Part shown: in pieces, positions 28,985 through 31,344 of the stretch
How positions within the stretch are numbered: position 1 is the first letter of the stretch
Layout: each line of letters begins with the position of its first letter
IMG/VR virus record: IMGVR_UViG_3300046522_000748
DNA length: 64,000 bases
Strand: one strand, 5' to 3'
Source of the DNA: a virus
Taxonomy: Duplodnaviria > Heunggongvirae > Uroviricota > Caudoviricetes
The notes under the pieces: model-generated
Seen by the model: the letters and a program-made list of their open reading frames with translations, nothing else
Databases searched by the model: none
What the model was told of the DNA's origin: nothing
Made by a program: the position numbers and the translations under genes

Positions 28985-29370
28985 CGTGCGTCCTGGGCTC
29001 AATCCGGTTCGGCAGGCGATTGCCTCCGCTTTCCCTCTAGGCCATTCAGTCGGTATCTCTTAGCGCGGATTTTCGCCTAAGCCATTTTTTTGATGTTGTC
29101 ACTATACTCCCCTCTGTCACGATTGTCAATGCAAAAAACTGTCATTCTGTCTGACTAGACATTGGTTTTCAAATTTCAACAAACGAAATTGTGTCGCATG
29201 CGACATGCGTTTTTTGACCTTTGACTATTCCATTTAGAAAACTATTGCGGTGATTAAGGCTGCATTATTATAGTCGAAATATAATTATTGTTCTGCCTAA
29301 TTTACAAATGATAATTTCGTGTAGAATACAATTATTCGTTAATAACAATAAAAATAAAACGAGACAATCG

Positions 29371-30537
29371 ATGAAGAAATTACACATCGCAATTCTTGCG
29401 GGGTTGGCTGCATTTTCTCAGCTTTCCAGTGCGCAACAAAATCACAGGATTTACTTTCCACTCAGTGAAACAGTACCCGCTAAGAGTAATCCTGGTGAGA
29501 TTGACCCAGGAGAAACCATTCCTGATGAAAATTATGATCCTGAGGTTTGGCGACAGATTGATCCGGTTTATGGTGAATGGGCAAACATTACTACACCAAA
29601 TTGCTCTTATTGGTATCCATTGACTTCCGATGTGGCAAAAGGCGCAGCATTCAATCAGGTTTCCTACGATTGCGCCGTTCAACAGAGTCGCACTGTTCAG
29701 CGCCGTATATTGAATAACAACACAGCTGAAGTAAAAAACATTGGCGCCGTATTTAAAGAAACCCAAGCCGCAATTGTATTTGATAGCAGGCCATCAGTTG
29801 GCACCGGGGAAGAGTGGTTGCCGTTTGACCCGCTTTATTCCAGCTGGGCCGCGACCTCGGAGCCTTACGGTTGTGCTTCATGGAGTCCATCCGCCACAAG
29901 TGTAACGGTTGCATCGACCTTTACACAAAATTCTGACTCTTGCCTTATCTCGCAGCAGCGCACTAAAACCAATCAGGAGCAGGAGAGATTTTCTCTAGCT
30001 ATTCGTACCGCTGGGGCTCCCATTAATGAATCGCAGGTGCTGAACAATCAGTCATCGACCAGGAGTTATACAGTTAAAGTATCTGATTGGGCTGACAATG
30101 GCCAATATTCAGACTGCACTGGGTGGTTGCCGCTGACCTCGACTCAAGCGACTGGAACTTTTTTTACGCAAACTCAAACTTGTACTGCCACGCAGGCCAG
30201 AACAATTAACGGCTTTATTGGATCGACCCCAGACCCTGAATATAAAACGGTGACGCAAACCCAATCGGTTCCAAATAAAACAAGAGCGCAGCAGGCTGTA
30301 GGCACAATGGCAGAAAAGGTCTGTAAGGGAGACGCTTCCAACTATATGCAGGCGCTCAACACTTGGAACGGAAAAGTCGGATACACCATCGCTTGGAATG
30401 GTGTAAACATTCTTTACACCGAGACTTCAACGCCTACGACTTATACAAAAGATGGGTATACCTACACCAGAGATTATGCTTTCTACCGTGACTCTACGGT
30501 ATCGAAATATGTAATATGTCGAGAGGCAGCCCAGTAA
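29371..30537 (+). CDS. secreted Trp/Cys-repeat protein
   Basis: signal peptide MKKLHIAILAG; three W..C..W.P...FTQ..C..Q.RT repeats; distinct C-terminal domain. Confidence 0.8.
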   Translation: MKKLHIAILAGLAAFSQLSSAQQNHRIYFPLSETVPAKSNPGEIDPGETIPDENYDPEVWRQIDPVYGEWANITTPNCSYWYPLTSDVAKGAAFNQVSYDCAVQQSRTVQRRILNNNTAEVKNIGAVFKETQAAIVFDSRPSVGTGEEWLPFDPLYSSWAATSEPYGCASWSPSATSVTVASTFTQNSDSCLISQQRTKTNQEQERFSLAIRTAGAPINESQVLNNQSSTRSYTVKVSDWADNGQYSDCTGWLPLTSTQATGTFFTQTQTCTATQARTINGFIGSTPDPEYKTVTQTQSVPNKTRAQQAVGTMAEKVCKGDASNYMQALNTWNGKVGYTIAWNGVNILYTETSTPTTYTKDGYTYTRDYAFYRDSTVSKYVICREAAQ

Positions 30538-30541
30538 CAAG

Positions 30542-30581
30542 TGTTTTTTACATTGACAGTATGTCGATTCTGCGCTATTAT
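30542..30581 (+). promoter_or_regulatory. sigma70 promoter TTGACA-17-TATTAT with variant operator TGTTT-N7-TGACA
   Basis: same variant as TGTCA-N7-AAACA read on the other strand. Confidence 0.75.
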
Positions 30582-30608
30582 ATCACTTCACTACGGAGAT
30601 CTTTCATC

Positions 30609-30695
30609 ATGAAAATTGGTAGCCAAGAAGACAAAGTACCGGGCATCGGTGCGGAAGAAATTGGTTCGCAGGAAAGCGGCGTCGGCGAGGGCTAA
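30609..30695 (+). CDS. 28-aa peptide MKIGSQEDKVPGIGAEEIGSQESGVGEG
   Basis: GGAG RBS right after promoter; internal IGSQE repeat with synonymous codon changes. Confidence 0.55.
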   Translation: MKIGSQEDKVPGIGAEEIGSQESGVGEG

Positions 30696-30739
30696 AATCC
30701 GCCTGCTTCTCATCAATTCTACTGAACAAGGAGCCTGCC

Positions 30740-30766
30740 ATGAGCGTTGGATTCGGCGACAGCTAA
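30740..30766 (+). CDS. 8-aa minigene MSVGFGDS
   Basis: AAGGAG RBS 6 nt upstream; followed by terminator. Confidence 0.45.
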   Translation: MSVGFGDS

Positions 30767-30796
30767 AAACAGGGGGCAGTGCCCCCTGTTTCTTTT
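30767..30796. terminator. bidirectional intrinsic terminator
   Basis: AAACAGGGGGCA-G-TGCCCCCTGTTT. Confidence 0.75.
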
Positions 30797-30798
30797 AC

Positions 30799-31344
30799 TC
30801 ACTCAGCAGAATGGTCGAGTGCCAGCGCGTAATCTGTCATGTCGTGCGCTGAGATCGAATAGCCCCCTGATGTCAGATAGTCTCCTGCCACAGCAATCAT
30901 TGGCTCAGGACTCCAGCTTACGGCGATGTGCAGTTCATCTCCTTCAATTTCCAGAAGCCTCATCAATTCCTTTGTTAGCATGAGTGCCTGGACGGTTGCC
31001 TGCTTTTTGAAGGCTTTGAAATCGGTGGTCAGCGCTTCGTATGCGTCCAGTCCGTAGTTATTGATGATGGTGCCCGGTTCAATCGCCCATTCGTTGTACA
31101 CAGTTTCGCCTTGGCGAGTCTTGCCGATGGCCACCGCATTCCTGGCAATCACGTGCGATTCCAGTATCGTTATGGACGACTCCTTTCGTATGCCCCTTCC
31201 CTCCTTCACAAATGTTGTTAGTTCATTGTTAATTTCGGATGTGTTAGGTAATCGCAACAATGTTTCGGCTGTTTTCTGATAATGGGGAGCCCTTTCCAGC
31301 ATCGCTTTGATTGCTGGACGGCCTAAATAATTAATGCAGTTCAC
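30799..31344 (-). CDS. hypothetical protein, PGDYG-like C-terminus
   Basis: AAGGTG RBS; SW..PMIAVAGDYL..GYSI. Confidence 0.65.
   Translation of the reverse strand: MNCINYLGRPAIKAMLERAPHYQKTAETLLRLPNTSEINNELTTFVKEGRGIRKESSITILESHVIARNAVAIGKTRQGETVYNEWAIEPGTIINNYGLDAYEALTTDFKAFKKQATVQALMLTKELMRLLEIEGDELHIAVSWSPEPMIAVAGDYLTSGGYSISAHDMTDYALALDHSAE

Follow-up and report, generated by a model that had tools for sequence, protein, structure and literature searches.

A short stand-alone transcription unit that appears to encode two conserved acidic, glycine-rich peptides of 28 and 8 residues on a giant uncultured replicon

Does a transcription unit of about 210 bases, whose two small reading frames are 28 and 8 codons long, act through its RNA or through the peptides that it could specify? 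The question is raised by positions 30542-30796 of the window (the whole 64,000-nucleotide stretch of viral DNA analysed here), which a first-pass annotation had read as a complete unit with a promoter, a GGAG element, ORF1, an AAGGAG element, ORF2 and a terminator, and every one of these elements proved to be present where it had been placed. The unit stands alone and lies on the plus strand. Its sigma-70 promoter, TTGACA-17 nt-TATTAT (30553-30581), matches the consensus at 11 of 12 positions in a consensus scan and, judging from its position, would place the transcription start near 30586-30590. ORF1 (30609-30695) translates into the 28-residue peptide MKIGSQEDKVPGIGAEEIGSQESGVGEG and is preceded by SD1, the GGAG at 30595-30598, which lies 10 nt 5′ of the ATG. 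An inter-cistronic spacer (30696-30727), poorly conserved in the haplotype comparison below, leads to SD2, the AAGGAG at 30728-30733, which is located 6 nt 5′ of the ATG of ORF2 (30740-30766), whose translation is the 8-residue MSVGFGDS and whose ATG and TAA are both kept in relatives. Beginning one base 3′ of the ORF2 stop is a bidirectional intrinsic terminator (30767-30796), composed of a perfect 12-bp stem (30767-30791) and a T tract that runs to 30796, which is common to the unit and to the convergent minus-strand gene at 30799-31344. The terminator stem is kept in the relatives, with changes in the loop and one C-G to U-G change.

The promoter had also been described as operator-bearing. 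The operator-like TGTTT-N7-TGACA (30542-30558) is a two-mismatch variant of the palindrome TGTCA-N7-TGACA, which occurs in 13 exact copies within the window versus 0.21 expected, and the right half of the variant coincides with the -35 box. Replacement of the half-site TGACA/TGTCA by AAACA/TGTTT suggests that there is a second affinity class of sites inside the TGTCA-N7-TGACA regulon. The GTGTTTT and TTGACA parts of the site at 30542-30558 are preserved in the related loci L022, L023 and L026. Elsewhere in the window the AAACA/TGTTT half-site variant is found at five sites besides 30542 (3152, 14229, 45557, 50176 and 61842).

As read from their sequences, both peptides are acidic, rich in Gly and without a hydrophobic core or signal peptide, ORF1 having a net charge of about -4 and a Gly content of 25%. 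ORF1 holds an internal tandem duplication of 15 codons (IGSQE...G-I/V-G...), and the observation that its two IGSQE copies are spelled with different codons stands, the Ser and Gln codons being the ones that differ. At the DNA level this repeat, AAATTGGTnnnCAnGAA, is a 17-nt direct repeat with 76% identity between copies whose spacing is 45 nt (15 codons). Another direct repeat, TCGGCGAnnGCTAAAA, is present in two copies 71 nt apart that span the final codons and the stop of both ORFs. Common to the two peptides is a module of the form G-(I/V/F)-G-(A/E/D)-(E/D/G)-(E/G/S), which appears as GIGAEE, GVGEG-stop and GFGDS-stop.

The first-pass annotation had taken the codon differences as a sign of selection at the peptide level and had called for conservation to be checked in relatives. 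We fetched relatives as syntenic loci, using the protein encoded at 30799-31344 (P0002) as the anchor. Independent samples of rhizosphere and soil yielded four different haplotypes: the window, whose sequence is identical to L001; L023, identical to L024; L022, identical to L025; and L026. The L023/L024 variant is also present as a contig from run X10, which shares its 1-nt spacer deletion at 30704, and the metagenome runs that contain the window come from rhizosphere and soil. Because the comparison covers four haplotypes in two clades, no more than about 18 variable ORF sites underlie the statistics.

In all four haplotypes both ORFs remain intact, with invariant ATGs and stop positions, and not one site varies in the -35 box, the -10 box, SD1 or SD2. 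The sequence between these elements changes freely, as 10 of the 17 positions of the promoter spacer, 13 of the 23 positions of the 5′ UTR outside SD1 and 18 of the 38 positions of the inter-ORF spacer outside SD2 are variable. Taken together, 18 of 114 ORF sites vary (16%) versus 31 of 61 in the 5′ UTR and spacer (51%; Fisher P = 2.4e-6), and by codon position the variable ORF sites are distributed 2, 2 and 14, a third-position excess of 14/18 (P = 1.4e-4). ORF1 is variable at 13 of its 87 sites, mainly at third codon positions, and ORF2 at 5 of 27 (0, 1 and 4 by codon position). When the window is compared with L022, six codons of ORF1 differ synonymously, its stop stays in place but is TAG instead of TAA, and D8Q and V10T are its only amino-acid changes; ORF2 reads MNVGFGES in the L022 clade. 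The dN/dS of ORF1 and ORF2 combined is 0.11 at a dS of 0.66 (NG86), which is similar to the values of the flanking genes (0.12 for P0002 and 0.06 for P0001, NG86).

Insertions and deletions are 1 to 3 nt long and confined to the spacer, whose total length is 44, 43 or 41 nt. The frame relation of ORF1 to ORF2 is thus not fixed, with three different relations among the haplotypes, which leaves no room for a fusion by frameshifting or read-through and means that ORF2 would require initiation of its own. It had been granted that the two ORFs would lose their case if the overlapping 78-aa plus-strand frame at 30616-30852 were the translated one, but this frame is interrupted by a stop in L022 and frameshifted in L023, which favours the two small ORFs; an overlapping 44-aa minus-strand frame is truncated in L022. 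The comparative marks of a smORF are found here: frame, start and stop are kept, third-position bias goes together with a low dN/dS, and a conserved SD stands at the proper distance. As judged from these comparisons, ORF1 and ORF2 are under purifying selection at the amino-acid level, and the original claim of peptide-level selection is upheld by the third-position bias, the dN/dS, the invariant SDs, starts and stops, the confinement of indels to the spacer and the fused ortholog described below. In L023 the JGI gene caller annotated a 49-aa ORF that spans the unit (L023:3537-3686, minus strand). We rejected this ORF as an artefact, in which the 1-nt spacer deletion fuses a non-conserved frame with the frame of ORF2.

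The anchor of this synteny, P0002, is a convergent 181-aa neighbour on the minus strand (30799-31344) that has homologs and a confidently predicted model (pLDDT 92), for which neither Foldseek nor VIA-align returned a PDB match (best Z 3.2). It carries the conserved motif GDYLTSGGYSIS. In the ESM Atlas its fold recurs as a domain in proteins with TPR-S/MAP3K_TRAF_bd (TM 0.75) and PGDYG (TM 0.64), and proteins of this kind are typical of bacterial conflict systems. An exact copy of P0002 is found on a JGI contig of at least 1.14 Mb from rhizosphere metagenomes, to which the window is assigned, and the related locus L012 sits on a 942-kb contig. Nearly all surrounding genes are without a Pfam or PHROG match, and no tRNA gene lies within the window. 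Most loci of the P0002 family are without such a peptide gene, no Gly-rich acidic small ORF being found near P0002 homologs in L003, L004, L007, L011-L013 and L017-L019. A complex prediction for a P0002-family neighbour and the 55-aa peptide introduced below, run without controls, gave a score of 0.00, which speaks neither for nor against an interaction.

A more distant locus, L002, on a contig of 19.9 kb, is a compacted relative of the window that is collinear with it from 43 kb down to 27 kb, and its P0002 homolog is 51% identical. Orthologs of the window genes at approximately 42.7-43.2, 40.3-41.0, 38.7-39.3, 30.8-31.3, 28.5-29.0 and 27.2-28.5 kb are packed within 6 kb of L002, and numerous genes must therefore have been inserted in the window lineage, among them one for a secreted 409-aa protein (29308-30537). 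The gene at 38.7-39.3 kb encodes an RLIG1 RNA ligase, to which the L002 ortholog is 82% identical.

In the interval and orientation that correspond to the unit, L002 has a single 55-aa ORF, MNPKEWSKNLGGHVIVFEDTGVGAGSPAIGVGEGVSVDDLKPFVGFGESVGFGEG; a 93% identical copy in L010 is likewise convergent with a P0002 homolog. A peptide gene is found next to the P0002 ortholog in two clades that are ~50% diverged. In the collinear DNA alignment the tail of ORF1, GVGEG-stop, falls on an internal GVGEG-V of the L002 ORF, and SVGFGDS-stop of ORF2 on the C-terminal SVGFGEG-stop of the 55-aa ORF of L002 and L010. A single chain or a pair of peptides would therefore carry the same module, and its copy number differs between the split and the fused form (three versus four). 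Over the C-terminal VGFGESVGFGEG region, from codon 44 onward, L002 and L010 differ by three nucleotide changes, all of them synonymous. In a BLASTP comparison ORF1 matches the 55-aa protein weakly (E = 0.05), and the probable homology of the 28 + 8-aa form with the 55-aa form is drawn from its position, the collinear DNA and the short motifs that they share.

Upstream of the 55-aa ortholog (L002:4310-4445, minus strand) there is a tandem array of three minigenes of 6 codons (MSEETI, MSKETI and (V)SVETI), each with an SD-like site of its own and with synonymous differences at the Ser, Thr and Ile positions. L010 (24-92) retains MSIETI, and MTKKSF stands where another minigene was; the unit in the window has no equivalent. 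These minigenes could serve multi-leader translational control or yield hexapeptide products.

Searches for further relatives of the peptides covered several collections. The DNA of the unit was not found in E. coli genomes, plasmids or phages, scans of IMG/VR for close relatives with two flanking proteins found none, and a back-translated ORF1 pattern gave 0 matches in IMG/VR. The large protein sets were searched with the 55-aa ortholog, and among 5.8 billion and 1.8 billion proteins its only true relative is the 93% identical copy. Two large proteins, of 3539 and 1432 aa, matched its N-terminal half weakly (residues 7-25 and 1-29), and both lack the G-x-G-acidic module altogether. A feature-based search of the ESM Atlas with the 55-aa ortholog returned no usable match, tblastn of the same protein against phages returned noise only, and neither it nor ORF1 has a meaningful match in Pfam or NCBIfam or any match among PDB sequences. 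In PHROGs, where ORF1 was searched as well, there is one weak match, to phrog_6828 (E = 9e-4), itself without known function. By these searches the unit is a new small-protein family, the smORF catalogues (PMC11364881, PMC11188072) having been compared by type of evidence only. Those catalogues of conserved intergenic smORFs identify genes by the same class of evidence as used here, conservation and a coding signature, and they set lower length limits (15 codons in PMC11188072), because of which an 8-codon cistron would escape them.

We consider it probable that the unit is a protein-coding micro-operon whose module-bearing, disordered peptides act in trans on a protein partner. According to this model, a strong sigma-70 promoter that would belong to a replicon-wide TGTCA-N7-TGACA operator regulon drives a transcript of ~210 nt that would end at the intrinsic terminator (30767-30796), and from which two separately initiated cistrons would yield a 28-aa peptide (ORF1) and an 8-aa peptide (ORF2). 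The selected product would be the peptides and not the RNA. Both peptides are likely to be intrinsically disordered and to act in trans, the G-(I/V/F)-G-acidic module presumably serving as a short linear motif that a protein partner recognises, so that the peptides might work as competitive mimics or inhibitors encoded in the accessory gene region of a giant element. Inhibitor, mimic, signal and modification substrate, the roles put forward by the first-pass annotation, are all candidates. A more specific version, in which the module is a new short linear motif by which a giant extrachromosomal element titrates or mimics a host protein, for example as a decoy in defence or translation, is speculative and has in our estimate a modest chance of being right. 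Phage modulator peptides that bind a host protein, such as Stp of T4 (26 aa) and CIII of lambda (54 aa), offer a parallel. Like them, the unit has a very small product, encoded by a mobile element in an accessory region, and a strong promoter, although in its case binding is a proposal only and its peptides have no sequence similarity to Stp or CIII.

The main rival to this model, which we consider unlikely, is that the act of translating the unit outweighs the peptides that result. A ribosome ending ORF2 would mask the terminator hairpin and cause read-through antisense to 30799-31344, and the unit would act in cis as a translation sensor that couples translation capacity to expression of the neighbour. 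The geometry is compatible with such a mechanism, as in every haplotype the TAA (30764-30766) directly abuts the terminator stem, whose 5′ arm is 30767-30778; furthermore, Lys, Gln or Glu make up 9 of the 28 ORF1 codons, relatives have an RNA-repair ligase gene near the locus, and a contig from an RNA library (run X20), which covers only 30708-31325 of the stretch, bridges the terminator. However, neither strand nor origin is readable from this contig, which may represent read-through or contaminating DNA and is no proof of transcription of the unit. Conservation at the amino-acid level (dN/dS 0.11) also takes in codons for Gly, Ile, Ser and Val, for which a sensor of ribosome occupancy alone would have no need. 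This breadth of selection over all residue types weakens the sensor explanation, as does the L002-type locus, which lacks the required geometry: in L002 and L010 there is no terminator beside the stop of the 55-aa ORF, and another gene intervenes. A related reading, that of a leader-peptide attenuator, finds no same-strand gene after the terminator, the next gene (30799-31344) being convergent on the minus strand.

If the peptides are indeed the product, they could still be substrates and not effectors, handled in the manner of a RiPP or of a C-terminal Gly tag by an enzyme encoded elsewhere on the replicon, which would recognise the repeated G-x-G-acidic module as its site of modification, ligation or conjugation. 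We regard this as rather improbable. The module is short, repeated and conserved in its C-terminal position, its copy number varies from 3 to 4, and Gly is the last residue of both ORF1 and the 55-aa ortholog; the last residue of ORF2, however, is Ser, and the peptides contain no Cys, few Ser or Thr and no leader/core architecture. Nor was a modifying enzyme, transporter or protease recognised among the neighbours with Pfam and PHROGs. A comparison in size is offered by MccA, the heptapeptide precursor gene of microcin C, which ends in Asn and adjoins the MccB adenylyltransferase and export genes. ORF2 (8 codons) resembles MccA (7 codons) in being extremely short and, as it appears, independently initiated, but it ends in Ser, and ten neighbouring proteins are without an MccB-type Pfam match.

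A further possibility is that the transcript also acts as a base-pairing small RNA, as in SgrS/SgrT or SR1/SR1P, the small ORFs being its second function, which we judge to be very unlikely. In its length of ~210 nt, its own promoter and its Rho-independent terminator, the transcript resembles a typical small RNA. In such a model a seed would sit in the non-coding parts, yet these are the least conserved, with 51% of positions variable and indels in addition. At the level of structure, the unit is no more stable than its shuffled versions (z = -0.72), and in a consensus fold of three sequences covariation contributes -0.42 kcal/mol, with a single compensatory pair, so that no supported RNA structure was found in the unit besides the terminator. 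Rfam gave no match at the gathering score and, at E up to 10, only terminator-like matches, with the CsrB/RsmY/RsmZ group absent. Stand-alone smORF genes whose transcripts are about as long as small RNAs are known from SR1/SR1P of Bacillus (PMC3526287) and Pos19 of Rhodobacter (PMC5036791). The unit shares with these its length of ~200 nt, its own promoter and terminator, an SD and a small ORF conserved at the amino-acid level, but differs from them in having two cistrons (28 + 8 codons) and no base-pairing region seen to be conserved. Its peptide sequences are also unrelated to theirs, and its context is the accessory region of a giant uncultured replicon.

The existence of the fused form raises the question of whether the window carries a decaying remnant, in which a stop and a frameshift have disrupted a gene of the 55-aa type and abolished its function. 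The ortholog is one ORF in both L002 and L010, and the window form is interrupted exactly between module copies. Against decay, lineages that separated after the split have kept the split form under purifying selection (dS 0.66, dN/dS 0.11), the SD and ATG of ORF2 are perfect and invariant amid a fast-evolving spacer, and promoter and terminator are intact, which together leave this explanation most improbable.

The proposal that the RNA is a sponge sequestering CsrA/RsmA through five GGA motifs within ~210 nt of a transcript that looks like a small RNA deserves next to no credence, since the motifs first reported are all present but their number is that expected by chance (5 observed versus 4.3 expected, P = 0.44; 10% of 210-nt segments have at least five), one of them is lost in relatives, Rfam gives no match at the gathering score, of the CsrB/RsmY/RsmZ type or otherwise, and nothing in the fold (z = -0.72) or the covariation (-0.42 kcal/mol) supports their presentation in hairpin loops. 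Of the five, two coincide with the SD sites and two fall within conserved Glu codons; the fifth, the one that is lost, is a Gly codon for which relatives have GGT or GGC. The unit is thus like CsrB, RsmY and RsmZ in transcript size, terminator and the presence of GGA motifs, but unlike them in that its GGAs are neither enriched nor conserved as such and come without supported loops or a covariance-model match.

For the trans-acting peptides that we favour, it matters that ORFs this short escape gene callers. The comparative evidence is unusually clean for a gene of 28 codons, and more strikingly so for one of 8 codons with an SD of its own; to our knowledge, very few ORFs as short as 8 codons have been recognised as real genes. 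The occurrence of split (28 + 8 aa) and fused (55 aa) forms points to the short repeated module as the functional unit, so that function is directly testable with synthetic peptides or pull-downs. If the module is indeed a new short linear motif aimed at a host protein, an 8-residue peptide, ribosomally made and unmodified, would be a functional gene product by itself. The unit would also give a replicon of >1 Mb, nearly all the rest of which lacks annotation, a well-delimited micro-gene under regulon control.
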